64,000 nt of DNA. It comes from a virus. How positions within the stretch are numbered: the first letter of the stretch is position 1; the number at the start of each line of letters is the position of its first letter. Of this stretch, positions 8,908-38,500 are shown piece after piece. Both the position numbers and the translations under genes were made by a program. Below the pieces are notes generated by a model. That model saw only the letters and a program-made list of their open reading frames with translations. It was not told where the DNA came from and did not search any database. The DNA lies in the IMG/VR virus record IMGVR_UViG_3300010389_000007, positions 20,835-84,834 of that record, one strand, 5' to 3'.

Positions 8908-9291
8908 TTAATCTCCAATAAACATTATTAATACTCTAGCGTGATCCGAAGCTCCAGAACCACTGGACTTGGTCATAATGACAGCACTAGTTGAAGTGTC
9001 AGCATTTGTGCCTTGAGGAACAATGTTGGGCACTGAAGTTCCTGTACTGTAACCATCATCACCTGTCCCAGCATAAACATAGTTAGCATTAGAGAAAGCA
9101 GAGCTAAAATTGACTGTATATTGACCTCCTCCTCTGTCTGTAATACTAGAGACATTAGAACTGGCATTAATTGTTACAGTTCCAGTGCCTTTGAACTGTA
9201 CCCAGGCACTCACTTTACCTTCAATATTTATATCTACTGGAGTAGAAGCTCCAGCAGTATTTTCTATAGTATTTACTCTTAAGGTACTCAT
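8908..9291 (-). CDS. Small tail-fibre tip-like protein, paralogue 3
   Basis: MSTLRVNT; AWVQFKGTG...NVSSITD..G.YTVNF. Confidence 0.75.
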   Translation of the reverse strand: MSTLRVNTIENTAGASTPVDINIEGKVSAWVQFKGTGTVTINASSNVSSITDRGGGQYTVNFSSAFSNANYVYAGTGDDGYSTGTSVPNIVPQGTNADTSTSAVIMTKSSGSGASDHARVLIMFIGD

Positions 9292-9334
9292 TCTAAATTT
9301 CTCCTATTTGATTTAAATACTATGGGTTAGTTAA

Positions 9335-9706
9335 TTAGCGGAAAACTGCTGCAAAAACATAATCACTGTTGCTGAAAGCGTTAGCTCTGGTTCTGACTTC
9401 TAGCCTAAATCCACCAGTTCCAACAAAAGCATTTGAAAGATCTCCAGCTGCTCCACTATAATTGTTTGGATTTGCTCCACAAACAGCAACATAACTTGAA
9501 TCAGAAAAAGCAGTGCTAAAATTGACTGTATATAGACCAGTACCATTATCTGTAATGCTGCTCACGTTGTTACTAGAGCGAATTGCAACAGTTCCAGTGC
9601 CATTGAAGTTCACCCATGCTTTTGCAATTCCATTTGAAATTTGAGCTGGAGTAAGACCGTTGTTCCCAGCAGCATCTTGTAATGTGTTTACTCTTAGTGT
9701 GCTCAT
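9335..9706 (-). CDS. Small tail-fibre tip-like protein, paralogue 2
   Basis: MSTLRVNT; KAWVNFNGTG...NVSSITDNGTGLYTVNF. Confidence 0.75.
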   Translation of the reverse strand: MSTLRVNTLQDAAGNNGLTPAQISNGIAKAWVNFNGTGTVAIRSSNNVSSITDNGTGLYTVNFSTAFSDSSYVAVCGANPNNYSGAAGDLSNAFVGTGGFRLEVRTRANAFSNSDYVFAAVFR

Positions 9707-9741: not shown

Positions 9742-10155
9742 TCAGTTGAATGCAGCAGCAGTAACCCACTCATGATCAACGTTGCTTCCACTAGAATTAG
9801 TAGCTCTAAGCGAGATAGATCCTACAGCGGGAGTATTAACTCCCTGTCCACCAAATTGATCACTATCATGTTGAACATATCCAGAACTAGTTTGTCCACC
9901 AGTCCCACAAACTAAACTGCAGTAATTAACATTTGGAAAATTATTAGCCCAGTTTACTCTATAATGTCCTGTTCCAACATCAGTAATACTAGAAACATTA
10001 AACGATCCATTAATAGAAATAGCACCAGTACCATTAAATCTAACCCATGCACGACATAAGGTTCCATTTTGAGTTCCACTTCCATCAGTGAACTGAACTA
10101 CATTATTAAAACCAGATGTAATGTGTTGAACTGTATTGACCTTAAGTGTGCTCAT
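9742..10155 (-). CDS. Small tail-fibre tip-like protein, paralogue 1
   Basis: MSTLKVNT; RAWVRFNGTG...NVSSITDVGTGHYRVN. Confidence 0.75.
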   Translation of the reverse strand: MSTLKVNTVQHITSGFNNVVQFTDGSGTQNGTLCRAWVRFNGTGAISINGSFNVSSITDVGTGHYRVNWANNFPNVNYCSLVCGTGGQTSSGYVQHDSDQFGGQGVNTPAVGSISLRATNSSGSNVDHEWVTAAAFN

Positions 10156-10158
10156 ATC

Positions 10159-10443
10159 TTATACCAGTGGGTTTTCTCCAAGGACATTAGCATCCCATAC
10201 TGCCTTGAGTTCATTAGTCACTCCAGTAACATCAGTAGAAGTAATGCTAGTATTATCAACGATACCAGTAGCATCTCTGAGTGCCTGCTTGCGTGTAGCA
10301 GATGCTGCTTGAGCAGTTGAGTCTGCTGCTTCAACAGCTCTCATGAAGGTTACATCTTCTGCTTGAAGCAGTGGGTTGCGAACCTCACGAATCTTATCCT
10401 TATGGATTGCTTTTGCTTTATCTACATTAATTCCAATAGGCAT
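10159..10443 (-). CDS. Tail-fibre assembly chaperone-like protein
   Basis: IREVRNPLL..ED...KQALRD pattern of Tfa-like chaperones. Confidence 0.65.
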   Translation of the reverse strand: MPIGINVDKAKAIHKDKIREVRNPLLQAEDVTFMRAVEAADSTAQAASATRKQALRDATGIVDNTSITSTDVTGVTNELKAVWDANVLGENPLV

Positions 10444-10456
10444 TGTTTAAATCTCC

Positions 10457-10654
10457 TTAATTAAAAGTCCAAGCATCTCTGTAAGTTCTATCTGAAGGAA
10501 CTTCAGATACATCAATAACTTGATAAGGTTTTCCTGGAGGAAGATCTCTCAGCAACCTTTCAAGAGATGGGCATTCTGGTGAAGGTACAATAATACTAAC
10601 TCCACCGTCATCATTGGGATAAATTACCCTTGTATTTGGATTTAGTTCAGACAT
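10457..10654 (-). CDS. Tail-fibre associated hypothetical protein
   Basis: IYPNDDGGVSIIVP...DLP.G.PY...PSDRTYRDAW, usually paired with the adjacent chaperone-like gene. Confidence 0.7.
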   Translation of the reverse strand: MSELNPNTRVIYPNDDGGVSIIVPSPECPSLERLLRDLPPGKPYQVIDVSEVPSDRTYRDAWTFN

Positions 10655-10679: not shown

Positions 10680-10853
10680 TTATACAACAGTCCAGTTGGC
10701 ACCAGAGTTAACTGTAACTGTGACACCACTATTTATAGTAATTGGGCCAACACTCATATAGTTGGTTCCATTAGAGAGTGTAGTGTTTCCTGTTACTTGT
10801 TGACTAGATTCAAAAAAAACTCCTCCACTACCTCCCCCTATAGTTTGTGACAT
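10680..10853 (-). CDS. 57-aa protein equal to the C-terminal motif of the 911-aa collagen fibre
   Basis: Manual translation MSQTIGGGSGGVFFESSQQVTGNTTLSNGTNYMSVGPITINSGVTVTVNSGANWTVV; ATG directly follows the upstream TAA; TATAAATA at 10677-10684. Confidence 0.8.
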   Translation of the reverse strand: MSQTIGGGSGGVFFESSQQVTGNTTLSNGTNYMSVGPITINSGVTVTVNSGANWTVV

Positions 10854-11276
10854 TTAGACCTCCTGTGCTCCAGAATAGTATTCTGTAGATTTCAAATGAT
10901 TGTATGCCTGAGTCAGAATTGAATCTGAACTATTGGGATCAATCATAAATTTAATCTCATAAGATTCTCCTTCAGTTACAATCCCATCAGGAATTTGTTC
11001 ACGAACAGTATCACCAAATTTACCAACAAATTTTCTACCATTTGATCTTGCTTCTGCAGAGGCAAACACAGTTACCTCAATAGATCCAACATATCCTGCT
11101 CTCCAATAGACCTCAGGACCCCTATCTCCAACAGTTAATCCATCTTCTCTAGAAGAATCTGGAGGTGGAGCGATGTCCTGAAGTCTTTTCTCAGTTCTGA
11201 CGTTAGTGACAAGATGATAGGCATTATCTACCACTACGCCAGTTCCAGGAATTTCAAAATCTCTCAGTAATGCCAT
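10854..11276 (-). CDS. Tail-fibre associated protein (possible chaperone)
   Basis: Directly downstream of the giant fibre; C-terminal QAYNHLKS.EYY.GA..V. Confidence 0.65.
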   Translation of the reverse strand: MALLRDFEIPGTGVVVDNAYHLVTNVRTEKRLQDIAPPPDSSREDGLTVGDRGPEVYWRAGYVGSIEVTVFASAEARSNGRKFVGKFGDTVREQIPDGIVTEGESYEIKFMIDPNSSDSILTQAYNHLKSTEYYSGAQEV

Positions 11277-11277: not shown

Positions 11278-14200
11278 TCACTCTCCTAATTTTTTCTTGA
11301 GTTCGTCAAGTTCTCTTCTCATAGTATTTATTATTTCATTCTGTTCTTTAACTGCTTCAATTAACAGTGCAGTTAAGTTTCCATACTCAACTGAATACTC
11401 ATCAACGTCCTTAGCATGAGTGACAACTTCAGGTACAATTTGCTCAACTTCCTGAGCAATCAGACCCATCTTGATTCCTTCCTTACGGTTCTTAGCTTTT
11501 GTAAGATCCCATTCAAAAGTAACACCACGAAGTTTGAGAACCTTATCTAATGGACTCTCAATAGTTTCAATGTTCTTCTTGAGTCTGACATCAGATGCAG
11601 CAGTGATTGTGCCAGTTGCATATACATCACCACTAACATAAAGTTCATATGCAGATGATGTTGTAGATCCAGTAATACCAACACAATTATCGCCATATGA
11701 ATAGTAAACAGGCCATATTCCACCAGCAGAATAGTAAATTCCACCATTACCAGTGGCACTCTGAAACATTAAATGTGGACCTCTTCCTGAATCAAATAAA
11801 AATCCAAAATATCCACCTCTATTGCCATCTACTTTCCATGCACCATAAGATGTAGTTTCATTTGCTCTAAGGTCAGCATCATTAGTTGACTCATAAATTC
11901 CTTCATCAACTCTCAGTCTTTTGTAAGAATAGTTGTTGTTAGAAGTTCCATTGATCTGGAATCTAGCAGTGAGACTGTTATAGTCGTCCATGAACCTATA
12001 ACCACCATAATTAGAATTAGCACCAAAACTAATACCAGTATGGAAGTTAATTCTCAGATCTGGATATGGAGAATTCCATGTACCATCTTCTTGGAAAATA
12101 TCATAGGCATATGAACTAATTGAAAGGTTAGAATCACCACCAACATTCCTAGGTTTTAGAGTTCTATAAAGAAGTCTAGTTCCATCATAAGTGAGATTAG
12201 CAGCACCAGCAGGTGAACCATTGTTATTATAGATTAATTGTGTATCTGATCCTGCTACTGGACCAGGAATACCTTGGAATCCTTGAGCACCCTGACGACC
12301 TTGAGCACCTTGAGCACCAGCAGATCCTTGTCTACCTTGAGCACCTTGAGCACCTGCTGTACCCTGTCTACCTTGAGCACCTTGAGCACCTGTTGCACCT
12401 TGAGGACCTCTAGGTCCAGCAGATCCTTGTCTACCTTGTGCACCTTGTGCACCTGCTGATCCCTGTCTTCCTTGAGCACCCTGAGCACCTACAGCACCTT
12501 GTCTACCTTGAGCACCTTGAGCACCAGCAGCACCCTGGGCTCCAGCAGCACCTTGAGCACCTGCTGTACCTTGTCTTCCTTGAGCACCCTGAACTCCAGC
12601 AGCACCTTGGAAACCTTGGAATCCTTGTGCACCAACTGATCCCATAGGACCAAATACTATAGTATAAACTCCAGTAGTGGTGTTTATTGATGATGAAACA
12701 TGAAGTCCACCAGAGTGAGTAATAGATCTACTTCTTTGGAGAACACCATCCTTATAATACTTTACAGTTGATCCATCATAAGTTATTGAGAAAATAGTTG
12801 AAGTGGTATATGAACCATAAGTTCCAATATTGGATCCATTCTCATAAATTCTTGCTGTTCCAGCATTCACATACCAAGCATAATCAAGTGTTGTATATGA
12901 TGTAGATGCTGTTGGATCAGCAGTCAATGCAATCATTCCAACGCCACTAGTATTATTAACTTGGAATGCCATGTATGCATATTCATACTCTTCTGCAGAG
13001 TAAACCCTTGCATTCCATCCACTACCAGATGTTCTTTGGAATTGATTTGGTCCAGTTTGAGTTACTGTTGACAATACTGGTGTCCAAGAACCTCCTCCAA
13101 GTTGTCCTTGAGCACCCTGAGCACCACCAGATCCTTGAACTCCAGAATTTCCTTGAGCACCTTGTCTACCTTGTGCACCTTGAGCACCAGCAGCACCTTG
13201 AGCACCTGCTGCACCTTGTCTACCTTGGGCACCCTGAACTCCAGCAGCACCTTGTCTGCCTTGAGCACCTTGAGCTCCAGCAGCACCTTGTCTACCTTGA
13301 GCGCCCTGAGGTCCAATTGCACCTTGAGCACCTGTAGTTCCAGAAGCACCCTGAGCACCAGCAGCACCTTGAGCACCTGCTGCACCTTGTCTACCTTGAG
13401 CACCTTGTCTGCCCTGATATCCTTGTGCACCTTGTACACCTTGATTTCCTGTGGCACCTTGAACGCCTTGATTTCCTTGTGCACCTTGAGGTCCAATAGC
13501 ACCTTGAGCACCTGTAGTTCCAGAAGCACCTTGAGCACCCTCTACACCAGGAGATCCTTGTCTACCTTGAGCACCTTGAGCACCTGCTGCACCTTGAACC
13601 CCTTGGTATCCTTGAGCACCTTGTCTACCTTGGTGTCCTTGAGCACCTTGTCTACCTTGAGCACCTTGGACACCTGCAATTCCCTGTGGTCCTATGGATC
13701 CTTGAGCACCTACAGAACCTTGTCTACCTTGAGCACCTTGTCTACCTTGGGCACCTTGAGCACCTGTAGATCCTTGTCTACCTTGTGCTCCTTGTATTCC
13801 TTGAGCACCCTGAGCACCTGTAGATCCTTGAACACCTTGAGCACCTTGAACACCTTGAGAACCCTGAACACCTTGAGCACCTTGTCTACCTTGTGCTCCT
13901 TGTACTCCCTGTGCACCCTGAGGTCCAATTGCACCTTGAGCACCAGCAGATCCTTGTCTACCTTGAGCACCTTGAGCACCTACAGCACCTTGTCTGCCTT
14001 GAGCACCTTGAACTCCTTGAGCACCCTGAGCACCTGTAGATCCTTGAACACCTTGAGCACCCTGAACACCTTGAGTACCTTGAGCACCTACAGCACCTTG
14101 TCTACCTTGAGCCCCTTGTCTACCCTGTGCACCTTGAGGTCCAATAGCACCTTGAGCACCTACAGCACCTTGTCTGCCTTGAGCACCTTGAGCACCTACA

Positions 14201-17200
14201 GATCCTTGTCTACCCTGAGAACCCTGAATACCTTGTGCACCCTGGGCACCTACAGCACCTTGTCTACCTTGAGCCCCTTGTCTACCCTGAGCACCTTGAG
14301 AACCTTGGGGTCCTAAGAATCCTTGAGCACCTTGAGCACCTACAGCACCTTGTCTACCCTGAGAACCTTGTCTTCCTTGTGCACCCTGAACACCTTGGAA
14401 TCCTTGTGGTCCAATAGCACCCTGAACACCTTGGGATCCTTGTCTACCTTGAGCACCTTGGAATCCTTGGGCACCTTGACGACCTTGTGCACCTTGAACT
14501 CCTTGGAATCCTTGGAATCCTTGTGGTCCAATAGCACCTTGTCTACCCTGTGCACCCTGAGCACCTACAGAACCTTGTCTACCCTGAGCACCTTGAACAC
14601 CTTGTGAACCCTGCCTACCTTGGAATCCTTGAGCACCCTGAGGTCCTTGGAATCCTTGAGCACCTTGAGCACCTACAGCACCTTGTCTACCCTGAGAACC
14701 TTGTCTTCCTTGTGCACCTTGAGCACCTACAGTTCCTTGTCTTCCTTGTGCACCTTGAACTCCTTGGAAACCTTGAGCACCCTGAACTCCTTGGAATCCT
14801 TGTGCACCTTGAGGTCCAATAGAACCTTGAGTTCCATTTGTTCCTTGTACACCTTGGAATCCTTGAGCGCCTTGAGGTCCAATAGCACCTTGAACACCTT
14901 GAGCACCTTGTCTTCCTTGTGCACCTTGGAATCCTTGTGCACCCTGAACACCTTGGAATCCTTGTGCACCCTGAGGTCCATTTAGAGGTTGTGTCCACTT
15001 AACACCAGTTCCTGTAGATGCAAGAACAGAGTTTGCAACACCTACAGTTCCTGGAGTATCATATAGAGGTCCATTGATCTTTAGATTTGTTGTAGTGGTA
15101 AATCCAGAAGATCTAATATCATGAACTCTAATGCTTGGAGTTAGAGTTACAATTCCAGAAGATACTGATAGGTTAGTGGAATCAAAGGATGCAATACCTT
15201 TTGTAGAGCTTGTTGCTAATGTATGGGTGTTGCTAGTTACTCCAACAACCCTACCATAAGCATCTACAGTAAGATGTGAAATAAATTTGTCAGTCCCTGC
15301 AGATAGAGAAGTAACAGGAGTTGATACAGTTGCCAGATCAATATCATCAGGATTAATTACAATTCTTAGAGTGCTTGCAGTTCCAACATTAAAGTCTGCA
15401 CCAGAATCATATAAACCAAGACCAGCACCTTTCTGAGATGGTGATGAAATCTGAGTAAATTCAATTGCAGAAACACCAATTGCAAGTGCATAAGTGTCTC
15501 TGGTAACAAGAGCAAAACCTTTTCCTTGCTCTTCTACACCACCAATAATGAAAGCAAAGTCTCCAGTTTCAATTTCCCCAACTTGGTCATAGTCACTAGC
15601 TCTTGTTAATTCCCAAGAAGTTGATCCATTACCAACTCTGGTTACAGTGTAGAAACCATTTTCATATAGATTTGTCTGCTCTTTAATTAGGATTCTTTCA
15701 TCTAAGAATAAAGTGGTATCATCAATGGAAGTTGTACCTACACCAACACCATAGAGTTTTGCTCCAACACCACTAGCGCCATTATCATAATTTGAAACTA
15801 AGTTAATTGTAGATCCAAGAGAAACTGCCTTCTGAACCTGAATGCCTTGTGCAAAGGCATCAACATAATTCTTGGATGCAAGTTCTGCATTTTGTAGAGG
15901 GATTTGCTCATTGACAAATACTCTATCAACATAAAGATTGCTGCTGATTCCAACATCACCCTTGACCTCAAGGGTTCTTGTCATTACAGAAGTATTAACA
16001 CCAACCTTGTTTGTAGAATCATTGAAGTATAGTTCAGCACCACCAAAGTCTCCGCCATCATTATATTGAATCTGACCATCAGCACCGCCTGGAGTTACAT
16101 CAACTGTGATGGTTACACCAACTCCAGTTCCATCATTGGTTGCAGTAATATACTGTCCAACAAAGTTGAGTGCAGTTACACTTCCTGCAGTACCTACAAT
16201 AGATCCTTCATCTTTAATGGTTAGACCATTGAAGTTATTGACTGTTGCAAGTGGAACCCAATCAACACCAGTTCCAGTTGAAATTAGAACTTCATTAGCA
16301 TTACCAGTTTCTGCATTTCCATCATACAATCCACCAGAAACATAAAGACTGTTGGTTGCAGTTACAATACCAGCAGTTACATCACCATTCAGTGCACCAG
16401 AGAATCCACCAGTGGATGTTGTGACTCCAGTGATCTGAACTCCATTGTTTGTGGTCTCAAATTTCTTGGATCCGTTGTAGTAGAGTTCTACTGCACCATC
16501 TGTGATGAATTTTGCTTTAGTTTCAGTTCCATTGGTATTTTTTACTTCTAAATTATCAGCATTGATATTAAGATTTCCAGAACCAGTTTCTGAAATAATA
16601 GAATTATTATTGGAAGAGTTGTGGAAAATCTGTAAGTCAGTACCATCACCAAATCTCAATCTATCATCATCACCAAGATTTACATTACCTTGGAATGTAG
16701 AAACACCAGAGACATTCAGTGATGTGATTCTTGCATCAGCAACTGTACCAACACCAGAATAATTGAGATCTGTACCAGACAGAGTTGTTACAATACCAGT
16801 AACTATTCTTGCTTCTGTTGGTACATGGAGGTTGGTTACTGTTCCTGTTGTTGATGAAAGTGTGGTTACAATACCAGAAACAATTCTTGCCTCTGTAGGA
16901 ACATGCAGTGTTGGTGATGTAGTTACTCCTGAAACCTTGAGAGTATTTGCAATAACTACATTATCTGGGAGTCCAACTGTAACTGTAGCACCTTCACCAG
17001 TACCAGTAACTTCAATTTCATTTGTAGTTCCAGAAACTGATTCAACATAATCTCCAGTAGTATCAGTTCCAAGTTCTACTGAGTTTGGTTGAATAGTTGC
17101 TGCAAAAGATACATTACCTGTGCCATCAAAGCTAATGGGAGAAGCAAGTATATCTCCAGTAATTTGGAAAGTTCTTGCTGTTTCTAATTTTGTTGCATCT

Positions 17201-22758: not shown

Positions 22759-22953
22759 TTATTCAAAAGATTCTGACTCAGTTTCAGTTTGTTGCTCTAT
22801 TTCTTTTTCAAGAGATTTAATTCTTTCATTCAATTCAGAAACTACTGTAGATAAAGCATTTATTTTTGCCTCATATACAATGTTTTGGTTAATTAATTCT
22901 GTTACTTTCTTTTGATAGGAAGCAAGTAGTGCATTATAATCTATATCAACCAT
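22759..22953 (-). CDS. Small coiled-coil protein
   Basis: DYNALLASYQKK...QNIVYEAK heptad pattern. Confidence 0.7.
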   Translation of the reverse strand: MVDIDYNALLASYQKKVTELINQNIVYEAKINALSTVVSELNERIKSLEKEIEQQTETESESFE

Positions 22954-27770: not shown

Positions 27771-28153
27771 TATTGATTAAGAGTCTCCAGGATGCTTACT
27801 GTATATTTCATGTGGTTTGGATCAGATGTAGAAATTCCACTAATGGAAATTGCATCTGTTTTCAGTGCAGTTCTTTCAAGAACAAGTCTTCCCTCAATAA
27901 GAACTAAAGCATCATTTGGTGGGACTAAACCACCTTGAATAAGTTCATTGAAGTCTGTAGTAACCCCAGATTGAGATCTATTTGTTCTCTTGTGGGAGAA
28001 AGTGACTGTTCCAATGCCAGTTCCAGTATTTGCAACTTGGGCATAAAGTACAATACTTGTATAACCTGTTCTTGTAGTATAAATTTCAGTATTTTCAGTA
28101 GTGCTGACAATGCCAGTTACTGTTTTGTATGTATTTAGTGGTTGTTGTGCCAT
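27770..28153 (-). CDS. Small fibre adaptor-like structural protein
   Basis: Paralogue of 20132-20473. Confidence 0.75.
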   Translation of the reverse strand: MAQQPLNTYKTVTGIVSTTENTEIYTTRTGYTSIVLYAQVANTGTGIGTVTFSHKRTNRSQSGVTTDFNELIQGGLVPPNDALVLIEGRLVLERTALKTDAISISGISTSDPNHMKYTVSILETLNQ

Positions 28154-31100: not shown

Positions 31101-32636
31101 TCCCTTAGAAATGTCAAATGCAATTGCATCAATTAAATATCCAATATCTCTTCTACACTTTACTCTACCAGTAGCAACTCCAACTGCACCATAATCAAAG
31201 TCTGGACCATAATAACCAAATGGACCATCAGTGCTGGTAATGAAACCTACAATTTCATTAGCAATGAATTCCTTGTTTCTGACCAGTAGATTTGCAGCAT
31301 CAAGGAATCTACCAGGAATGTTATATTTTGAAGATAATACAGAGTATGCAAAACCTACATTATTGTCACCATCTACAACTTCACCACCAATTCTTACATC
31401 ACCTTGAACATCTAAGGTTCTAGTTGCAACATTGGTTCCAATTGCAACTAATGGTTGAATAGTTTTTACGAAATCTGTTCCAAGAGTTCCATATACTTCT
31501 TCTGATGTGAAGTACTCAGAAGCAGAAAGGACAGTTCCTGCTATACCTACATCTAATTCTCCAGTTGTGGTAATTCCTAAAACATTCAGATTATCAATTG
31601 TTGAGATTCCTACTCTTTCTTCTCCAATGGAAGCAAAGTCAATAGTAGAGATCCCAACTACAGACTCTCCAATAGTTGCAAATCCTACAGTTGCAATACC
31701 AGAAAGTAATTGTGAAATTGTACCAATACCAATTGTTGAAACTCCAACAGTTTCTGAATCAATAGTTGCTGTTGTGACACTTGCAATGCCAATTGTGGCA
31801 ATTCCAGCATATACATCAGTTACAGTTGCAAATCCAACTGTAGCAACTCCGATTGCAGCATCAGTTATAGTTGCAAATCCAACTGTGGCAATACCAGAAT
31901 ATAGGGTGGTGGCAGTAACAAATCCTACAGTTGCAATGCCAATATTGGCATCAGTTACATCTGCTAAAGATATTGTTGCAATACCAATATTGGCATCAGT
32001 TACATCTGCTAAAGTTATTGTTGCAATTCCAATTGCAGCATCAGTTATGGTTGCAAATCCAACTGTGGTCAATCCTACTGTGGATTGTAGGACATCTGAA
32101 TACTCAACTGTTGATATACCAACTATCTCTTCAGCTACAGTAGCAAATCCAACTGTTGATACTCCAACAGTCTCTGCAGAAATATCAGCAACTGCAACTG
32201 TTGCAAATCCTGAGATTGTGGCAAAGGTCATGGATGTAAATCCTTGAACCCTTGCGTTCTGTAAAATGTCTAAATTATATTCAGGAACAGTAGAACCAAT
32301 ACCAACAGAACCAAGACCAGTTATAACTACTGATTCTGGAGCAAATACATTGACTTTAAATTTATTGGTTCCAGGATCTTCATCAATACCAATGCCATCA
32401 GTTACATATACCTTACCATCTACATCTAATTCAAAATTTGGTGCTGCTACATTAACACCTAGTCTATCCCCAACAGTCAGATTTGTTTCTACATTAGCAT
32501 CACCAACAACATCTAAACTAAAATCTGCTAGAGTTTTACCTATTGCTACTCTTTTTGTTGTAGAATCAGCATATAATGCTTCTGTTCCTACACCAAGACC
32601 TGTTCTAACTACAAAATAGTTTTCTTGTGATGCCAT
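28161..32636 (-). CDS. Large virion structural / fibre-base protein
   Basis: IGIAT/VGFAT repeats, repeated DA..L...N..FIA.E.V helical units, C-terminal STDQGGNFRI...TPLIIALG shared with 20475-22706. Confidence 0.75.
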   Translation of the reverse strand: MASQENYFVVRTGLGVGTEALYADSTTKRVAIGKTLADFSLDVVGDANVETNLTVGDRLGVNVAAPNFELDVDGKVYVTDGIGIDEDPGTNKFKVNVFAPESVVITGLGSVGIGSTVPEYNLDILQNARVQGFTSMTFATISGFATVAVADISAETVGVSTVGFATVAEEIVGISTVEYSDVLQSTVGLTTVGFATITDAAIGIATITLADVTDANIGIATISLADVTDANIGIATVGFVTATTLYSGIATVGFATITDAAIGVATVGFATVTDVYAGIATIGIASVTTATIDSETVGVSTIGIGTISQLLSGIATVGFATIGESVVGISTIDFASIGEERVGISTIDNLNVLGITTTGELDVGIAGTVLSASEYFTSEEVYGTLGTDFVKTIQPLVAIGTNVATRTLDVQGDVRIGGEVVDGDNNVGFAYSVLSSKYNIPGRFLDAANLLVRNKEFIANEIVGFITSTDGPFGYYGPDFDYGAVGVATGRVKCRRDIGYLIDAIAFDISKGGNSKSVGAGLSYYEGAVLKYLDDSAVIPTGFSTGYVKQATLVGFSSISTLARYVINNSRLPKSYQTPPLNGTYADAARLILANKVLIAEVAVGRMLANFSGFSVPGGNQECIDDIIDVLEAMCFNLEFGGNDQVYDAAKIYVDNDYLSGEETESIYAYQQARDMAIQAMRNETITLGGYTSEVQYIDNSVVGDQSGLPGVYVSGDCATQASAITVFIQIITEAIEFGTLPATRTITGVASIAQVVDTELLPDGDSNTNPFACANVYSAIHSCVGIVTTIIGEGLAETPKINNPVGELTWQPPGAKVGNEWFVAKYGNDSNVGDTPGGAFLTIKKACSIAQPGDTVKVFAGLYVEDGPIQVPERVAVVGEDLRRTLVSTKAKTDLYHVRRGCYIAQQSFVGEANPNAMVSFPTVGLGYADGTEKNWQSPYVQNCTNFVPDSVGMRIDGARAGGFKSMVLDAYTQYNQNGIGVSITNFGYAQLVSLFTICCNIAVYNDTGGVCDMNNSNASFGNFGLWANGTTPLQYVGIVTVTPEGDNIDSLVLNVGAGATQAYDDAVDLLRANADFLANEVVGFVTSTDGPYGGLGTAFDYGGVAAGRDKCKRDTKIIVETFALDLIQQSNINSIDTALAYRDSADYSVSYLGDSSPVPTGFTPGYVADGEISAINYLAGISTYVIQNLNLPESYQSGINSIPQIKDTNKNGYSPLIVGIITTSAGIITSVIGLGTGSLPERQLPRGQRPYDGQVTFIDTQYFTVNTIRIDSPGFGYVVGAPVEVQLSLPELGDDAIAAEATIFEDGVNPDGTIGEITILVSGTGYLSPPTVTIAPPPDATPGIGSTATATAVMENLFFNVVSSTPVDPTGITTVTFDQFITYPVSAGASVNFFQASKIIASGITFEYIGTGTDIVNAIPSKAAVPIDENQIVATNGGRVPFTSTDQGGNFRISEGITINQNTGTISGTAFSKSLQAETTPLIIALGGG

Positions 32637-32708: not shown

Positions 32709-33194
32709 ATGCAAGTAATAGATAACTATTTACCAGAGGAAATTTTCAAACCTATTCAAACAATGATTCTTAGTGATGGATTTCCCTGGTATTGGAATGA
32801 TGCAAAATCAACTTATGAAAATTATTCATGCAATGATTTAGACAATTTTCAGTTAACTCATAGATTTTATGATCAATATAGCAAATGCAGCACTGCTAAT
32901 ATTGATCAAATTATAGTAAAATTAAACCCACAAGCAATTGTTAGAATTAAAGCAAATTTAAATCCAAAAACAACCAAAATTATAAAATATGGATTTCATG
33001 TGGATACTCATATTAATTGCAAGACTGCAATCTATTATTTAAACACTAACAATGGATATACAGAATTTAAAAATGGGGAAAGGGTTGAGAGTGTAGAAAA
33101 TAGAATGGTGTTTTTTGAGTCCCAGTTAGAGCATACTGGGACATCATGCACAAATCAGAAAAGAAGAGTTGTTATAAATTTTAATTATTTTTAA
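32709..33194 (+). CDS. 2OG-Fe(II) oxygenase
   Basis: GFHVD...TAIYYLNTNNG.T.F...ENRMVFF...HTG...RVVINFNY; own TGGTATAAT at 32679-32687. Confidence 0.85.
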   Translation: MQVIDNYLPEEIFKPIQTMILSDGFPWYWNDAKSTYENYSCNDLDNFQLTHRFYDQYSKCSTANIDQIIVKLNPQAIVRIKANLNPKTTKIIKYGFHVDTHINCKTAIYYLNTNNGYTEFKNGERVESVENRMVFFESQLEHTGTSCTNQKRRVVINFNYF

Positions 33195-36100
33195 GAAACT
33201 CTCATAATGTATGCAAGAGCATAGTATGGAGGTAAGTTTGCATTGGTTGCAGGTGAACCTTCAGTGGAAATTGTGGTTGTAGTTGATGTTGATGCTGTAG
33301 GTTGTGTGTAAGATACATTACCAGATGAAGTACTTAGACTTACTCCATCAACAACTTGTCCTCCACCACCAGAAACACCTTCAGTGCTTGTGCTAACAGA
33401 TGCTCCTGTCAAGAATGTGCCACTTGCATCTCCACCAGTTAGGGTTGTTGTTGATGATGAAGAGGCAGTGTGATTGTGTGAAACCAAAGTAGCATCTGCA
33501 CTACCACCAGTTGCTCCTGCAGAAAGTCCTGGATATGTAGTATCTCCAGTTCCACTGCTAGCACCAACAACAAATCTGTTTCTTAAGTTTGGAGTTCCAT
33601 TTGTTCCATCGCATAGTGCCCAGTTTGAAAGATCTCCAGTCCCAACAGAAGATGCTGCACCAGACCAAAGAATAATTCCACCAACAGGAATTGTTCCATA
33701 TCCATGAAGTGTTGTTGATGGTGGAACAATTACTTTTCCACCAGCAGAATTCAAGTATAAGTTATCTGATGTGGTAGTAATTGTGGTTGCTGAAGAGACC
33801 CCAACTGTAACATTACCAATTGTTGCATCATTATTAACTAAAAGGTTATTTCCAACTGCAACTCCCCCAGAAACTACAACAGCAGCAGTTGTTGAGTTAA
33901 TTCCTGGTTGAGTGTTTGCAAAAGTTACTATTCCAACAAATTCAGACTCACCTTCAACAGTTAATGATTGTAAGGTGGTTATTGCAGTGGATGCATCTAA
34001 AATATCATTTACAATTAAAGTATTAACTTCAAGGGTATCTGCTACTGCAGTATCTTCATCCTCTACTGGAACACCAACTGCAGTTTGATCTCCTGTAATT
34101 GCATCAAACTTAGTTCTTCCAATAAAGAACTCCCCATTGCTATTCATGCCAGTGTAAACAACTAGTCCGCCTTGAGAAACTAAAGATTGTGAAGTTAATA
34201 TCTCATCTTCATTTAGAATTCTATCTTGGTTTGATGGCATACCAGTAGAATAGTTACCAGGACCAAAACCAACATATTCAAATGTATGACCTGATGCTCT
34301 AAGAATGGAGTTTCTTCTAAGTTCAATTGGAACTACTGAAATTCTCTTAATTGCAGATCCAGTTAAGTGCGAAGATATTCTGGTTCCTAACTGACCTCTC
34401 TTAACATAAATTTCACCACCAGAAACTTTAGTCACCAACATAATTTCAGTATTTACCTGAATTATGTCTCCCTTTTGCAATCCATAAATGCTTGATACTA
34501 AGAAGTTAATATCAGATACTGAAATTGCTTGATTTGTTTTTGACTTATATCCATCATAAAGGGCAAAATGTCTTGATGCTAGATTTTCATTTTCAGCATT
34601 AGTTTCTTTTGAATTAGATGAAAGACCATATGCATAAACTCTATTTGCAGCTCCAGCATCTCCTCTAACAGTAAATGATGTGATTCCAATCACATTAGAA
34701 ACTGTGGATATTCCAATAGTTGGATCTGATCCAATTTGGTCATCAAACAATACTTTATTTCCAACTGCAAAATTATGTGGTTGTTGGGTTATAATAGTTG
34801 TTGTATTAGTTCCAGAATCATATACTGCTCCATCTGGAGAAGTTTGTAGTTGATATCCTGGACCACCAAATAAGATAACAGATTGCTCTGGAGTCTCTGG
34901 AATTCCTAGATTATTATAGTATGTTATAGTATTTGATGTTACTGACTTGATCAAGAAAGTTCCATTATTTCTTGAATTTTCACATCCAAGAATTTGAATA
35001 GTGTCTAAATCAGAAGATTCTTGATTTGTAGATGCAACAATAACACTTGCAGTATTTGAAGATCCTGGAATTCCTCTTAATGTTAGGGAATCTCCAACAG
35101 TATATCCAGAACCAAAGTTTTGAATTGCAGCAGTAGTTACACTATTTGAAGAAACTGTTATTGTTGCAGTTGCATCTTGCCCAGTTCCTCCACAAAGAGG
35201 AATATCATAATAAGTTCCATTTAAAAATCCAGATCCACCAGAACTAATAGTCAATCTCTTAATACCACCTAATCCATGATTTGTTGCAGTTGTTGCTGTA
35301 CAAACACCAACTGGACTAAATGTTGTTGTGTCTTGATAGGTAGTAATTCCAGTTATTACTTTTCCTAGATTAAAATCTGCTAAGAAAGATGATACAACTT
35401 CCTTAGTACTGCTATTCTTAGGGTCATTGACATTTACTACACCAATAATTGATCTAGATGCTTTTGTAATTGTTCCTTCAGGGTCTGAGTTTGGATTATC
35501 CTCATCAACCTTTGGATACAATCTTTCAATACTTTGTGATAGTTTGTATGTATCTGTATCAAATGGAGATACAGTTGGAACATTTTTAAATGCATTAACT
35601 GTTACATGATAAACTCCATCAGTAATTCCTTCCTCATAAGAAGTGATGGTGTCAATGTCATAAAGTTGATAATCATTTTGTACAGATTTCTGAACAAAAT
35701 ATGGCAAACTATTTCTGTTTGCATCATAGATTGTATAAGGTGGAATTCTATAGTTTGAAGTTTGAGCACAATCTCTTACAGTTAACCAAGATTCTGCAGT
35801 AGAAATGCCAACTGTAATTTCTCCAGGATCTCTAGATATTGCATAAGTAAATCTTAATTCATTAACAACTGCTGCAACAGTGAATTCCCCATTATATCCA
35901 GTTCCAGTACCAAGACCCACTGGAGCAGGTTCTGCAGAACTCTTTAAGTCATAAACTTTTATAGAATCTCCAACTTTTAAGTTGTGTGGTTTACTCGTTA
36001 CAATGGTAACAAATCCAGCACTATACCATGCATCAACAATTGCACCATTATTTCTAATTAAGGATAATTCATTGTTTGTAGCAGAAACCAAATCAGTGCT

Positions 36101-38500
36101 TTCTGCCTGTGGAAGTAAAGAACTTAGAGCATTTGATGCCCTCTCAATAATAAAACCAGAGGTGATGTCAGAAGCAGCTGAAGATTCTTTAGGGATAAAA
36201 ATTCTAAATCTATATGCTTTATCTTGATTTACTCTACTATCTAAGGTTCTCTTGATGTATGAAAGTGGTGCACTAACTGTGGCAAGATTGCTAAAGAATG
36301 AAGTTGCACCAGAACCTACAGAGTTTACTCCAACATACCAATTTTGATTTGCTGAGTCCCACTGAATTGGATGACCAATATCCCCAACATTCTTCTCATT
36401 AACAGAACTTCTGAAGACTAGGTTTCCAGTAGCAAAACCTACTTGGTTTTTAATATCTACTACAAAAACATCATTTTCTGCATTATTTACATTATCATAT
36501 AATTTAATTCCAGTTCCACCAGTTAATCTAACATTATACAGTTTATCATGTTCTATACCATCTGGAAGAACCCCATTTTTTGCAATTATTTTCCCAGAAA
36601 TTCCAGTAGAAATGCCTGTTATTCCAGATAAAGTAACTATATTGGTTGTGGTGTCAATTGTATTGATATCATATTCAATTTTATATGATGGAGTGATGGG
36701 AATTTGATATTCTACGTTAGCTGCTCTATAGTATAAAAGATCTTGATTCTTACCACCTACAGAAAATCCTCTAACTTTATTAGTTGGTGGTGAAAGTAAG
36801 TCTGTAAGATCGTTAAAATATACCCTGGTATTTTGATTTGATGCTGCAAGTGAATTTGTTAAAGTGGCATTAAGTTTTTCATATCTAATAACATTATCTG
36901 CTGCTGGGAGTTCTTTTGGTTGAAGTATATGAGTGATGTACGCATGATTATCTTTAGATAAAGCGTCTTTTTTATATCTTGATGAAAATAGTGCATTTTG
37001 ACCAAAATTACTGTTTGAGTTAGTAATTGATTGATCACCACCAATGTCAGCAACAAACTGCTTTGCATATCCAATAGCAAAGATAGAAACACACTGAATG
37101 AATGCATCATTAGATGCTTTTATGTGGAAAGTTTCCCATTCAGGTCTATATCTTGCTCTTGATGATTGGTGCAAGAATTTGTCTACACCAAAATTAGTTT
37201 GGAATTTATATGCTCCAGAAGTTGCATCATATTCTGCAAATGCTCTATCATCCTTTTGTAGAGAAATTCCAGTAAATTGTGCTGTGACCATGGATCTAAA
37301 TCCTTTGGCCTTTGATCCATCTGCATGGAGACCATTCATACCATAAACAGACTTCAAACTACAGTTGAAGACGTATGGAGATGCTGAGGAAACAGTATCT
37401 GAGATTACTTTTACCGATGCTCCAGTTACACTTGGGTTTAGAGTCTGAGTAGGAACATTAGATAGTAAATATGTAAATTCTGTTTCGCTTGTTACCTGAG
37501 CAACAACAAAATTTCCATTATACTCTAGTTCTGAGGTTGGACCTTCAGCCTGAGCTAATCCAGATATGATAATTGGGGTGAATGGTGATAGATTGTGTGG
37601 TGATTGAGTCTGAACAGTGATTACAGGAGTTCCGGATACACCATTTCCAGAAATTGCTGATGTAATAATGATAGAACCAGTTCCAAGTTCACCAACAATT
37701 CTATTTTCATCTACGTTAGGTTGGAAGTTATCATATCCATCTATGATACTTCTAGATGATTGGGAACCAAATCCCAAACTCAATTTGTAGTAGTAGTTTT
37801 CTAAATCTGTGTGACCAGTGCTAGTATTATTTTTTACTATTATATTAGTATCATCTGCATATTCAAACGCAGTAAGTTTATGGTGTGAAAAGTTTGGTAC
37901 AGTTGTATTTGTTGAATAATTATTATATACTTTTCCAATTGGATCACCATCAAAAATAGTAAATCCAAAGATATAACAAGCACCAGTTAGTTTGAATATT
38001 GCTGCTGGATCAATATTGTCATCTACTGGACTTGGAACAAATTTTGGTCTTATCTTTGTCTTTCTTAAATCATGAGCAACAAGAGAAGTTCCCTTTGGTA
38101 CTATGACCCCACCATCTACACTATTATAAATGTATAATTGGTTTGCAGGATCATTAATATCAAAATTAGTGGAAACGTTAAATTCAGTAATAGTTCTGGT
38201 GGCACTATTTACATCCTTTAATACGTTGGAACTATCTACCCAATATCCAGGTCTGTTGTCAATAAAGTGAGTTCCTGGGGAAAGTAAAATGGTGGTTTGG
38301 TCAAAAAGATCATTATTAGTTCCAGGAACATAAGAGAATCTTGCAGCTTCAATTAATGCCCTTTGAATGGTTTTAAAAGGTCTTAACCTTGAGTTTCCCC
38401 TATTATCAATAGAATCTGAAGCATCTAACTCATTTGGATCAACATATAGGGTATTACCATTGAGATTCTTCAAAAAGTTCTCTAATCTCGCTAAAGGCAT
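33191..38500 (-). CDS. Large tail fibre/virion structural protein with C-terminal tail-collar domain
   Basis: MPLARLENFLKN..G.TLYVDP; RPFKTIQRAL; C-terminal PVGGIILWSG...WALCDG.NGTPNLR.RFVVG...NLPPYYALAYIM. Confidence 0.85.
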   Translation of the reverse strand: MPLARLENFLKNLNGNTLYVDPNELDASDSIDNRGNSRLRPFKTIQRALIEAARFSYVPGTNNDLFDQTTILLSPGTHFIDNRPGYWVDSSNVLKDVNSATRTITEFNVSTNFDINDPANQLYIYNSVDGGVIVPKGTSLVAHDLRKTKIRPKFVPSPVDDNIDPAAIFKLTGACYIFGFTIFDGDPIGKVYNNYSTNTTVPNFSHHKLTAFEYADDTNIIVKNNTSTGHTDLENYYYKLSLGFGSQSSRSIIDGYDNFQPNVDENRIVGELGTGSIIITSAISGNGVSGTPVITVQTQSPHNLSPFTPIIISGLAQAEGPTSELEYNGNFVVAQVTSETEFTYLLSNVPTQTLNPSVTGASVKVISDTVSSASPYVFNCSLKSVYGMNGLHADGSKAKGFRSMVTAQFTGISLQKDDRAFAEYDATSGAYKFQTNFGVDKFLHQSSRARYRPEWETFHIKASNDAFIQCVSIFAIGYAKQFVADIGGDQSITNSNSNFGQNALFSSRYKKDALSKDNHAYITHILQPKELPAADNVIRYEKLNATLTNSLAASNQNTRVYFNDLTDLLSPPTNKVRGFSVGGKNQDLLYYRAANVEYQIPITPSYKIEYDINTIDTTTNIVTLSGITGISTGISGKIIAKNGVLPDGIEHDKLYNVRLTGGTGIKLYDNVNNAENDVFVVDIKNQVGFATGNLVFRSSVNEKNVGDIGHPIQWDSANQNWYVGVNSVGSGATSFFSNLATVSAPLSYIKRTLDSRVNQDKAYRFRIFIPKESSAASDITSGFIIERASNALSSLLPQAESTDLVSATNNELSLIRNNGAIVDAWYSAGFVTIVTSKPHNLKVGDSIKVYDLKSSAEPAPVGLGTGTGYNGEFTVAAVVNELRFTYAISRDPGEITVGISTAESWLTVRDCAQTSNYRIPPYTIYDANRNSLPYFVQKSVQNDYQLYDIDTITSYEEGITDGVYHVTVNAFKNVPTVSPFDTDTYKLSQSIERLYPKVDEDNPNSDPEGTITKASRSIIGVVNVNDPKNSSTKEVVSSFLADFNLGKVITGITTYQDTTTFSPVGVCTATTATNHGLGGIKRLTISSGGSGFLNGTYYDIPLCGGTGQDATATITVSSNSVTTAAIQNFGSGYTVGDSLTLRGIPGSSNTASVIVASTNQESSDLDTIQILGCENSRNNGTFLIKSVTSNTITYYNNLGIPETPEQSVILFGGPGYQLQTSPDGAVYDSGTNTTTIITQQPHNFAVGNKVLFDDQIGSDPTIGISTVSNVIGITSFTVRGDAGAANRVYAYGLSSNSKETNAENENLASRHFALYDGYKSKTNQAISVSDINFLVSSIYGLQKGDIIQVNTEIMLVTKVSGGEIYVKRGQLGTRISSHLTGSAIKRISVVPIELRRNSILRASGHTFEYVGFGPGNYSTGMPSNQDRILNEDEILTSQSLVSQGGLVVYTGMNSNGEFFIGRTKFDAITGDQTAVGVPVEDEDTAVADTLEVNTLIVNDILDASTAITTLQSLTVEGESEFVGIVTFANTQPGINSTTAAVVVSGGVAVGNNLLVNNDATIGNVTVGVSSATTITTTSDNLYLNSAGGKVIVPPSTTLHGYGTIPVGGIILWSGAASSVGTGDLSNWALCDGTNGTPNLRNRFVVGASSGTGDTTYPGLSAGATGGSADATLVSHNHTASSSSTTTLTGGDASGTFLTGASVSTSTEGVSGGGGQVVDGVSLSTSSGNVSYTQPTASTSTTTTISTEGSPATNANLPPYYALAYIMRVS

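Follow-up and report, generated by a model that had tools for sequence, protein, structure and literature searches.

Paired terminal motifs in the tail-fibre gene cluster of a T4-like cyanomyovirus and their possible role as joints between fibre segments

Do the conserved ends of the fibre proteins encoded at this locus join separately encoded segments to one another? The window, i.e. the whole stretch of 64,000 nucleotides that we analysed, lies within an IMG/VR contig of 84,834 bases, which is a fragment of a T4-like cyanomyovirus, and the region discussed here is the tail-fibre gene cluster of that phage. A tblastn search with its 743-aa protein matched 262 phage records, every one named cyanophage or marine virus, and the best named relative of this protein is that of S-SKS1 (62.3% identity). 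All genes of the cluster are on the minus strand. At its head is a 1769-aa tail fibre protein (33191..38500), which matches phrog_529 'tail fiber protein' with 1177 bits and, in its C-terminal part, phrog_1800 'tail collar fiber protein'; the three motifs described below are all absent from it, and it had no match in the Pfam scan.

A sequence-only reading had reported three recurrent pairs of C-terminal and N-terminal motifs in this cluster, and all three were found when we read the termini directly. In pair A, the 102-aa protein (24376..24684) ends in ...NIDLDGGSF and the 465-aa protein (22953..24350) in ...NITVDAGTF; the latter starts with MASAVLQFKRGP...AGEPGF and the 743-aa protein (20475..22706) with MADPKIRIRRSS...AGELAIN. 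In pair B, the 1491-aa (28161..32636) and 743-aa proteins share the end TSTDQ.GNFRI...TPLIIAL, extended by GGG in the 1491-aa protein, and their last 75 residues are 53% identical. Each is followed by a small protein and then by a collagen-repeat fibre: the 1491-aa protein by one of 127 aa (27770..28153) and the 911-aa fibre starting MAKYLSRR (25035..27770; Pfam Collagen, 248.6 bits), the 743-aa protein by one of 113 aa (20132..20473) and the 2949-aa fibre starting MSDFLSRR (11278..20127; Pfam Collagen, 350.3 bits). The two small proteins are paralogous (41-44% identical). In pair C, the end GPI.INSGVTVTV.SGA.W.(V/I)(V/I) is found in the 911-aa protein and in a 57-aa ORF (10680..10853) that is hardly more than this motif, and the last 48 residues of the former are 52% identical to the latter. 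The matching start MSTL(K/R)VNT opens three ORFs, of 137 aa (MSTLKVNT, 9742..10155), 123 aa (MSTLRVNT, 9335..9706) and 127 aa (MSTLRVNT, 8908..9291). A regular-expression scan of all ORFs of at least 30 aa in the six frames of the contig confined each motif to these ORFs of the window, with the sole exception of a 31-aa ORF outside it that satisfies the loose pattern for A N-termini.

We consider it fairly probable that the fibres are made of separately encoded segments, attached end to end via conserved terminal modules at three types of joint. The segments would presumably be homotrimers, joined as in the T4 long tail fibre. At joint A, an (I/V/L)-D-x-G-x-(F/Y) C-terminus would meet a gp37-type / Mtd_N N-terminus, so that the 102-aa, 465-aa and 743-aa proteins would form a chain. 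Joint B would have three parts, i.e. a hydrophobic tail (..TPLIIAL or ..AIALG), a jelly-roll protein about 110 aa long and a (Y/F)LS(R/G)R start, and would link the 743-aa protein to the 2949-aa fibre through the 113-aa protein, and the 1491-aa protein to the 911-aa fibre through the 127-aa protein. The cap at joint C, about 45 C-terminal residues (GPITI.SGVTVTV.SG..W.VV), would take distal knobs by the MSTL(K/R)VNT peptide, with the three MSTL paralogues as alternatives for the tip. Physical contact at joints B and C is our inference, and so are the oligomeric state, the order in which segments assemble and any branching. The idea of joints is sound but new only in part, joint A being known from T4.

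The proposal that the three pairs make up an undescribed system was therefore not upheld: pair A, as judged from sequence, is the joint between the gp36 C-terminus and the gp37 N-terminus of the T-even long tail fibre. In T4, trimeric gp36 is described as binding the N-terminal region of gp37 (Leiman 2010, PMC3004832); gp36 ends in ..QDFGYY and gp37 starts with an (I)QFKRS...GELAINL segment. The gp36 proteins of Acinetobacter DP45, Merlin and GEC-3S end in ..LDYGTF, ..QDFGYYS and ..IDFGTF, respectively, and a gp37 start of the same kind follows each of them. Residues 5-46 of the 743-aa protein align with residues 6-47 of T4 gp37 (BLASTP, 17/42 identical, E 5e-7), and its residues 3-46 match phrog_1699 and phrog_19966 'long tail fiber protein distal subunit'. 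Residues 7-42 of the 465-aa protein match Pfam Mtd_N (PF18454; 34.2 bits for a cut-off of 26.3); its body shows no similarity to gp36, and we found no homologue of it in S-SKS1, S-T4 or S-SCSM1.

The association of the two A motifs recurs across IMG/VR loci. An (I/L)x(F/I)(K/R)R..GE start directly follows 62 of the 66 distinct ORFs ending in D-x-G-x-F/Y, and an A-type end lies at most 400 nt upstream of 62 of the 79 distinct gp37-type starts in 186 loci that were not selected for pair A; in these and the other neighbourhood counts identical sequences were removed, kinship is uncorrected and many loci come from few clades. Among 5593 distinct ORFs, 67 end in the A motif, for 0.17 expected from amino-acid composition, and all 67 are on the coding strand. 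In the window, the succession of the 465-aa and 743-aa genes does carry the motif pair, but the two are not adjacent: a 64-aa coiled-coil-like ORF (22759..22953; weak coiled-coil Pfam matches only), missed by the sequence-only reading, intervenes. ORFs of this type (52-82 aa) follow A- or C-type ends in five other loci. Equivalents of the 102-aa protein, of 70-102 aa and ending in (D/N/E)GG(N/S)(F/Y), directly precede gp37-type starts elsewhere; the window protein has no Pfam or PHROG match, and its Atlas neighbours are viral hypothetical proteins. The 114-aa protein (24671..25015; phrog_1084, E 2.4e-21; phrog_3304 'L-shaped tail fiber protein assembly', E 3.1e-18) is of a type found at the head of the pair A chain in numerous phages, and in many loci the short D-G-G-x-F/Y protein is immediately preceded by one of about 113 aa; the 114-aa protein had no match among solved structures.

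Pair B is conserved as a trio of C-terminal tail, protein of about 110 aa and next N-terminus in all 24 cyanophage loci fetched with the 113-aa protein (the downstream start was read by hand in two of them), and is retained in S-SKS1 and S-T4. There is a second flavour, with a MANTFKS-type small protein, in which the upstream protein ends in ..[IV]ALG in 52/60 cases and the downstream one starts with M.(Y/F).G in 46/60. The three parts therefore vary together. The expectation that such proteins are found in virions is supported by labels for this trio: gp026, gp027 and gp028 of S-SCSM1 form it and are labelled virion proteins in the GenBank record, gp027 ('virion protein') being the homologue of the 113-aa protein, and the S-SCSM1 paper describes mass spectrometry of CsCl-purified virions. 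Residues 1250-1489 of the 1491-aa protein align with phrog_17885 and phrog_3442 at their C-termini, and the 127-aa protein matches phrog_1276 (E 9.1e-11), with no match in the Pfam scan. The AlphaFold2 monomer of the 113-aa protein (pLDDT 90.1) is a jelly-roll of nine strands, with VIA-align Z of 9.3 to 7a02, 9.2 to 7dou and 9.2 to 1nlq, a generic fold, as numerous unrelated chains reach a Z of about 9 against it. The 2949-aa fibre that follows it carries a C-terminal intramolecular chaperone (Pfam Peptidase_S74, 57.8 bits for a cut-off of 22).

Pair B might be explained differently, although we regard this as rather unlikely: the jelly-roll protein would close off the upstream fibre distally, either as an assembly chaperone that is retained or as an adhesin at the tip, and the next fibre, with its (Y/F)LSGR start, would attach elsewhere. 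The position of its gene, directly after the fibre gene, fits an action on or near the C-terminus of that fibre, and the virion label in S-SCSM1 is equally expected of a retained chaperone or adhesin. The modelled fold is common to TNF/C1q-like heads and a phage cement protein. The family comprises 2216 representatives (E <= 0.001), and its long members have loops of 307-1480 aa inserted into the jelly-roll, rather than fusions; this suggests that the small protein is an exposed structural protein, and would also suit a possible scaffold for surface display or adhesion. However, the downstream N-terminus varies with the flavour of both the small protein and the upstream tail (24/24 and 46/60, as above), and the small protein matches no Pfam family, chaperone families included. 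Moreover, in L007, an 88%-related locus, the 2949-aa stretch is cut into proteins of 690 and 659 aa, with such a tail and a 110-aa junction paralogue in between, which by sequence looks like a joint set inside a fibre.

Pair C is not exclusive. The cap is found on the same strand in 48 of the 80 loci fetched with an MSTL tip protein; over three sets of loci it is on the coding strand in 48/80, 2/24 and 16/80, and never on the opposite one. Conversely, among the 62 cap-fetched loci with at least 1500 nt downstream, a tip gene starts at most 300 nt after the cap in 19 (displayed gaps are of 4-5 nt), and in 41 the next 3 kb contain no tip gene. An MSTL-like start follows 44 of 103 distinct caps; behind others there are MPITIDG-like starts (9, not counting similar ones classed elsewhere), gp37-type starts (4), short ORFs of the coiled-coil kind (8) or something else (31). 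Co-occurrence of motifs in gene neighbourhoods across phage metagenomes is strongly positive for all three pairs, as had been anticipated, the end motifs being neighbours in hundreds of other marine phages. The pairs are not strictly cognate, however, the C C-terminal motif preceding several types of start or none.

In structural models the MSTL proteins take the form of distal knobs. Residues 27-123 of the 123-aa protein gave an AlphaFold2 monomer (pLDDT 85.7), a knob-like beta-sandwich, with VIA-align Z of 8.4 to the C-terminal domain of the phiAB6 tailspike (5js4, residues 454-563) and 8.0 to the C-terminus of the Pam1 tailspike (7eea, residues 688-758). Its 127-aa paralogue is 49% identical to it, and the 137-aa and 127-aa proteins match phrog_11355 'tail fiber protein' (E 2.1e-15 and 7.3e-15). 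The MSTL start also heads several unrelated bodies. The 57-aa ORF, which matches the C-termini of phrog_34255, phrog_5342 and phrog_36881, is kept at 57 aa in six loci, L007 among them, directly before MSTL/MSIL-type genes, and mini ORFs of this kind (66-79 aa) occur in other phages. Between it and the 2949-aa fibre is a 140-aa ORF (10854..11276) with no Pfam or PHROG match, whose position is kept in L007 and two other loci. Two further ORFs lie beside the tip genes: one of 65 aa (10457..10654; ..IYPNDDGGVSIIVP..), with homologues of 62-66 aa beside MSTL genes in four loci, and one of 94 aa (10159..10443; phrog_20196, E 2e-21), a possible chaperone with a weak match to Pfam Phage_tail_APC (17.8 bits, short of the 26.6 cut-off) and equivalents of 75-86 aa in three of these loci.

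Comparative counts exclude chance as the cause of the motif pairs. The adjacency of the motifs could be inherited synteny. It is a doubtful but conceivable alternative that the fibres are independent, each anchored by its N-terminal motif to one shared site (baseplate, neck or a hub), the C-terminal motif being a folding or trimerisation cap or a handle for a chaperone; adjacency would then arise merely because fibre genes are clustered, translationally coupled and co-inherited. The variety of starts after the cap, or the short coiled-coil ORF that closes the fibre genes, agrees with this, and the likeness of the cap to beta-helix rungs (a weak left-handed beta-helix match, E 0.05) would suit a folding cap. 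In addition, neither an A-type nor a C-type end lies upstream of 12 of the 79 gp37-type starts, most of these being at sites of HNH endonuclease genes, and the single A-type C-terminus of S-T4 is on a 72-aa ORF, 83 kb from the gp37-type gene. This ORF adjoins one of 112 aa, and the corresponding neighbourhood of S-SCSM1 is annotated as neck genes; no A-type C-terminus was found in S-SCSM1 itself by a scan that missed genes spanning cut points. Against independent fibres, the homologous T4 proteins of joint A are described as binding each other (PMC3004832), and the matching start comes right after nearly all A-type ends over clades with differing bodies. Furthermore, proteins of 57-136 aa made of bare N- and C-terminal motifs are implausible as free fibres; they include adaptors of 104-136 aa that are scarcely more than a gp37-type start and a C or B end. 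The knob domain, too, is covalently part of some fibres, being the C-terminus of single longer ones in 38 ORFs and stand-alone in 93.

The prediction of modular swapping was supported, in that termini are kept and protein bodies exchanged: among 71 cap carriers, similarity over the final 60 aa holds for all 2485 pairs, 1105 of which have nothing else in common. The ends might be DNA-level recombination linkers for the exchange of cassettes, with no role in protein contact, and mosaic bodies with common ends, like the B C-terminal copies of the window (68% nucleotide identity, same codon at 25/39 identical residues), are in line with this; yet it is very improbable, because the two cap copies are 54% identical in DNA, against 52% in protein, the A and B N-terminal copies 40-41% in DNA, and motifs persist among loci whose proteins are just 30-50% identical, far under what homologous recombination needs. 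By the codon comparison, selection acts on the protein and not on the DNA, since only 9 of the 25 identical cap residues share a codon.

If the segments are indeed joined, the closest known system is the T4 long tail fibre (gp34-gp35-gp36-gp37), likewise made of segments encoded by adjacent genes and joined end to end. It has the D-F-G-Y-Y end of gp36 and the gp37 start segment, the latter common to the 743-aa and 465-aa proteins. We found no similarity of the small junction protein to gp35, of the C cap to the gp34 C-terminus or of the MSTL tip protein to gp36, and therefore joint A alone is tied to T4, whereas the cluster described here has joint A twice running, two more types of joint and collagen-repeat shafts. 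Mtd_N is the N-terminal domain of the major tropism determinant of a Bordetella phage; the 465-aa start passes its Pfam cut-off, and the 743-aa start, though alignable to T4 gp37, is under the Pfam reporting level for it. Pfam describes the domain but not its partner, and the D-x-G-x-F/Y rule for the upstream partner comes from the present analysis. Chaperones or tip adhesins of the T4/T2 gp38 type occupy the same position as the small junction protein, directly after a fibre gene, and act at the C-terminus of its product, but there is no sequence match between them, and here the co-varying N-terminus of a further fibre follows. Marine podoviruses of the phiRIO-1 group (ICP2, SIO1) have side fibres of several polypeptides; the description that we consulted (Hardies 2016, PMC4819975) names no terminal motif pairs, small junction protein or rule linking a C cap to MSTL starts, and it is by this description that we set them apart. 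In branched receptor-binding proteins of the Klebsiella and K1-5 type, according to the abstracts (PMC8262889, PMC13579863, PMC12692247), a conserved N-terminal part attaches the variable, receptor-binding part either to the particle or to a second protein of the receptor-binding kind, and these anchors and adaptors make swaps possible. The Pfam scan reported no anchor-type domain of this kind in the window proteins and, compared with these branched systems as their abstracts present them, the chain here appears linear, with several types of joint.

We interpret the minus-strand tail-fibre cluster as encoding multi-segment fibres joined at conserved terminal modules, which is the best-supported reading of the data. 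All of its genes lie on the minus strand of an IMG/VR record of 84,834 bases (CheckV completeness 47%) and encode, in transcription order, proteins of 1769, 1491, 127, 911, 114, 102, 465, 64, 743, 113, 2949, 140, 57, 65, 94, 137, 123 and 127 amino acids (aa), the large ones being tail fibre proteins according to a PHROG scan. A sequence-only reading of the window had proposed three pairs of terminal motifs as docking interfaces of an undescribed system. In pair A, a C-terminal D-x-G-x-F/Y end (102-aa and 465-aa proteins) precedes a gp37-type start (465-aa and 743-aa proteins). In pair B, a TSTDQ.GNFRI...TPLIIAL tail is followed by a small junction protein of ~110 aa (113-aa and 127-aa proteins) and then by a (Y/F)LSRR start. 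In pair C, a C-terminal cap, GPI.INSGVTVTV.SGA.W.(V/I)(V/I) (911-aa protein and 57-aa ORF), goes with tip proteins starting MSTL(K/R)VNT. Every motif listed there is present at the termini, and a six-frame scan of the whole contig confined each of them to the ORFs named, with the sole exception of a 31-aa ORF that lies beyond the window and matches the loose A N-terminal pattern. That reading had overlooked a 64-aa coiled-coil-like ORF that separates the 465-aa gene from the 743-aa gene. The cluster is broken by two ORFs on the plus strand, of 161 aa (32709-33194) and 628 aa (38367-40253).

A tblastn search with the 743-aa protein hit 262 phage records, every one of which carries the name Synechococcus, Prochlorococcus, cyanophage or marine virus, and the best named relative of the protein is in S-SKS1 (62.3% identity); megablast of window positions 20000-33000 against named phages returned no match. 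Pfam matches are limited to three families: Collagen in the 911-aa (248.6 bits) and 2949-aa (350.3 bits) proteins, the Peptidase_S74 intramolecular chaperone at the C-terminus of the latter (residues 2845-2902, 57.8 bits for a cut-off of 22), and Mtd_N (PF18454) at the start of the 465-aa protein (34.2 bits for a gathering cut-off of 26.3). The 743-aa protein has no Mtd_N match at E <= 0.01. Solved structures were searched by sequence with the 113-aa, 743-aa, 123-aa, 465-aa and 114-aa proteins, with T4 gp36 and with the tip and cap profiles; none of these queries had a credible match, the 743-aa protein hitting a beta-agarase CBM alone (E 0.0046).

Joint A is tied to an experimentally known contact: Leiman et al. 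(2010, PMC3004832) describe trimeric T4 gp36 as binding gp37 in its N-terminal region. Residues 5-46 of the 743-aa protein align with residues 6-47 of T4 gp37 (40% identity, E 5e-7, BLASTP), and its N-terminus matches phrog_1699 and phrog_19966, 'long tail fiber protein distal subunit'. In T4, the gene preceding this alignable gp37 start encodes gp36, which ends in ..QDFGYY; in three further, more distant T4-type phages gp36 ends in ..LDYGTF (DP45), ..QDFGYYS (Merlin) and ..IDFGTF (GEC-3S), each time followed by a similar gp37 start. Our own reading of these four phages suggests that a D-x-G-x-(F/Y) end is a hallmark of gp36, and the A ends of the window, ..LDGGSF and ..VDAGTF, match this pattern. 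Pair A corresponds to the known gp36/gp37 joint, for which binding is established in T4 alone, and the claim of an undescribed system is not supported for this pair, its gp37-type start and its gp36-like end both being shared with T4. The body of the 465-aa protein, the one upstream protein compared, has no similarity to T4 gp36 (best BLASTP E 2.1).

We then counted pair A in 186 loci (1.76 Mb in total) that had been fetched for pairs B and C and were not selected for A, defining the gp37-type start by an HMM from alignment A5 and the A end as [DEN][GA]G[STN][FYW]. The two motifs co-occurred in both directions. An A-type end lies at most 400 nt upstream of 62 of the 79 distinct gp37-type ORFs (5 others have a C-type cap upstream and 12 have neither), and a gp37-type start follows 62 of the 66 distinct A-ending ORFs with room downstream. 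The A endings are on the coding strand in 67/67 cases, with 0.17 expected in total from composition. These and all other motif-pair counts ignore the phylogenetic relatedness among loci. Joint A occurs twice in succession in the unrelated loci L088, L161, L163 and L180, preceded by a ~113-aa protein of the same family as the 114-aa protein of the window and in the same gene order. No adjacent A partner is found where an HNH endonuclease gene sits upstream of the gp37-type gene. The 465-aa protein has no homologue in S-SKS1, S-T4 or S-SCSM1; the sole A-type ending of the S-T4 genome is on a 72-aa ORF 83 kb away, and a scan of S-SCSM1, which misses genes spanning cut points, found none.

Some further arrangements were observed around joint A. 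A 123-aa ORF, annotated as HNH endonuclease in S-SKS1, directly precedes the gp37-type gene in many cyanomyoviruses (L015-L026 and L003, the latter being S-SKS1), where it occupies the site of the 465-aa and 64-aa genes of the window, i.e. a mobile endonuclease at a module boundary. In L012:2796-4349, a 454-aa A-ending protein and a 62-aa coiled-coil ORF read as one 517-aa ORF, which, set against L010:2796-4348, may be explained by a genuine fusion or by a one-base sequencing difference. In S-T4 (142983-143767, loci L282-L283), a 2459-aa structural gene and then a 68-aa coiled-coil ORF precede a 112-aa protein of the 114-aa family and a 72-aa protein ending in ..IDGGTY. In S-SCSM1 (L195:129-1580), genes with a neck-protein annotation come after the same neighbourhood, so the neck, and not the baseplate, might be where the A-type chain starts.

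For joints B and C, the argument draws on gene neighbourhood, co-variation, mosaicism and fold models, which suggest joining at these ends as well. The main rival explanation is that the cluster encodes separate fibres, whose ends serve for anchoring and folding. In 71 complete cap-carrying proteins (206-1266 aa), the last 60 aa are similar in 2485/2485 pairs, while 1105 of these pairs have no other similarity at E < 0.001. Some proteins of only 104-136 aa consist of a gp37-type start and a cap or B tail. The tip domain forms the C-terminal end of longer single-chain fibres in 38 ORFs and stands alone in 93, and the MSTL start is found on several unrelated bodies. The B unit also recurs inside fibres. 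In L007, an 88% relative, the 2949-aa gene is replaced by three genes, encoding a 690-aa protein (ending in ..VALAIALG), a 110-aa junction paralogue and a 659-aa protein, so that one and the same fibre has been split, or else fused, at a B-type joint. The corresponding stretches are L007:6347-10752, on a 180-kb contig, and window positions 11278-20127.

Pair B forms a conserved unit of three genes. The 113-aa protein retrieved 24 IMG/VR loci, in all of which the preceding gene has the TSTDQ.GNF...TP.I.AL ending and the next gene an x(Y/F/K)(L/V/T)S(G/K)(R/T) start (24/24 each, with L027 and L028 read manually on account of the length of their small protein, 328-332 aa); several of these loci are near-duplicates, so that the independent cases are nearer ten. 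The three-gene unit is also present in S-SKS1 and S-T4. Retrieval with the paralogue of locus L034 gave a second flavour, with 60 distinct small proteins, on contigs whose lengths range from 4 to 252 kb. Here the upstream ORF ends in [IV]ALG in 52/60 cases and the downstream ORF starts with M.(Y/F).G in 46/60, a mini cap ORF being found in 6/60. The tail, the small protein and the next start therefore change together.

A second rival, restricted to pair B, regards the small protein as a distal cap or else as a retained chaperone. The 113-aa and 127-aa proteins match no Pfam family at E <= 0.01, tail fibre assembly chaperones included, and 77 relatives have no precomputed Pfam domain. In S-SCSM1, 'virion protein' is the label of the small protein (gp027) and of both its neighbours: gp026, which has a gp37-type start and a B tail, and gp028, which has a B start and a chaperone end; the source paper (PMC9602691) reports 45 phage proteins by mass spectrometry of CsCl-purified virions. 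The model of the 113-aa protein is a nine-strand beta-sandwich (pLDDT 90.1) with a generic jelly-roll fold, close to a spore-appendage subunit (Z 9.3), a trimeric phage cement protein (Z 9.2) and a nucleoplasmin-like core (Z 9.2), and a Foldseek search of the PDB returned nothing at E <= 0.001. Comparison of its alignment, A3, with T4 gp35, the kneecap, revealed no similarity (hhalign probability 0.14%, 5 columns aligned). The family counts 2216 representative clusters at E <= 0.001, always named 'hypothetical protein'. Its long members were considered as fusions with neighbouring fibres, which we rejected, as they carry insertions in the jelly-roll loops. In P0098, P0127, P0130, P0137, P0126 and P0143 these span several hundred to 1370 residues, some being repeated helical units, and the first and last strands are retained.

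The association proposed for pair C proved widespread, not exclusive. MSTL proteins were retrieved from at least 600 IMG/VR stretches; among the best 80 loci, which we kept, many come from ~40-kb contigs, beyond cyanomyoviruses, and a cap-motif ORF is on the same strand in 48/80 and on the opposite strand in 0/80. The 57-aa ORF was retrieved from at least 599 stretches, and is retained as such in close relatives, directly 5' of MSTL- or MSIL-type genes. Among the matches listed, 62 cap loci have at least 1500 nt downstream, with a tip-domain ORF within 3 kb in 21 and within 300 nt in 19. Classing the 103 distinct caps over all loci, again among the matches listed, by the start of the next ORF gave 44 MSTL-like, 9 MPITIDG-like, 8 short coiled-coil, 5 mini cap, 4 gp37-type and 31 other ORFs, and 2 caps that lack a next ORF within 120 nt or have no room. 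Of the 31 other starts, several resemble variants of the MSTL-like or MPITIDG-like classes.

The cap has no Pfam family, its profile giving only a weak match to a left-handed beta-helix, and it shows no similarity to the C-terminus of gp34 (hhalign of 29 caps, A6, against four gp34 ends, A7; probability 0.1%). Profile comparison of the tip with T4 gp36 was also negative; the gp36 start, MADLKVGS, resembles MSTLKV over a stretch too short to support a claim. The tip body is modelled as a beta-sandwich (pLDDT 85.7) that aligns with the C-terminal domains of the phiAB6 tailspike (5js4 residues 454-563; Z 8.4, rmsd 3.0, 92 aligned) and the Pam1 tailspike (7eea residues 688-758; Z 8.0, rmsd 1.8, 69 aligned), and more weakly with pyocin fibre feet and lectins. 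Since these values are near the stated background of the tool (Z 7-8), a distal knob is a lead; Foldseek against the PDB found nothing at E <= 0.001 (best 1.9e-3). Beside the MSTL tip genes, at window positions 10159-10654, lie an ORF of ~65 aa (IIYP.DDGG) and one of ~75-94 aa with a weak Phage_tail_APC match, which may be tip chaperones; the pair travels with MSTL genes in unrelated phages (L032, L034, L043, L180). A second MSTL-start family, of 170-185 aa, ends in ..MEVSA or ..LMEISA (L109, L111, L127, L139, L145), and each gene is followed by a ~100-128-aa ORF ending in ..KYPKP or similar that looks like a dedicated helper.

The weakest alternative, that the ends are DNA-level recombination linkers, failed a codon check: paralogous ends in the window are conserved in protein and not in DNA, which argues against recent gene conversion or mere linkers.

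Beyond joined segments as such, we tentatively consider a broader reading, possible if somewhat doubtful, in which a single combinatorial joint code would be common to marine phages of several morphotypes. This code would have at least three C-terminal sockets (D-x-G-x-F/Y, the ..IALG tail plus jelly-roll clamp, and the GPITI..W.VV cap) and at least four N-terminal plugs (gp37 type, (Y/F)(L/I)(S/G), MSTLKV and MPITIDG), allowing short adaptors and long shafts of unrelated lineages to be chained and exchanged. The ~110-aa jelly-roll family would be a new type of kneecap, connecting one trimer, at its hydrophobic C-terminal tails, with the N-termini of the trimer that follows, possibly by strand addition. 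Tail fibres determine which cells a phage infects. In marine cyanophages and other phages of the ocean, most of them carry the annotation 'hypothetical protein'. Should the motif pairs be joints, sequence would reveal in which order the segments of a fibre follow one another, and thousands of small 'hypothetical' ORFs would be adaptors, kneecaps or tips, given the size of the junction family and the hundreds of stretches with tips and caps. Defined break points would then allow host-range swaps to be traced among ocean phages, or to be carried out in laboratory phage-host pairs.

The novelty claimed by the sequence-only reading stands in part. The concept is in print, for T4 and, in Hardies (2016, PMC4819975), for multi-segment fibres of marine podoviruses; anchor-and-swap designs are known in Klebsiella phages. 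The motif grammar, the junction protein family and the cap/MSTL rule had no description in the literature searched, and no paper naming the motif pairs was found in a search that left most subscription journals outside and for motifs that are not text-searchable. Compared with the T4 long tail fibre, the small protein is unlike gp35, the cap unlike the gp34 end and the tip unlike gp36, which leaves joints B and C untied to T4. The body of the 465-aa protein is likewise unlike gp36, whereas the start and the end that form joint A are shared; if our reading is true, the gp36-gp37 joint, hitherto a T-even feature, would extend to a rule in very different phages.
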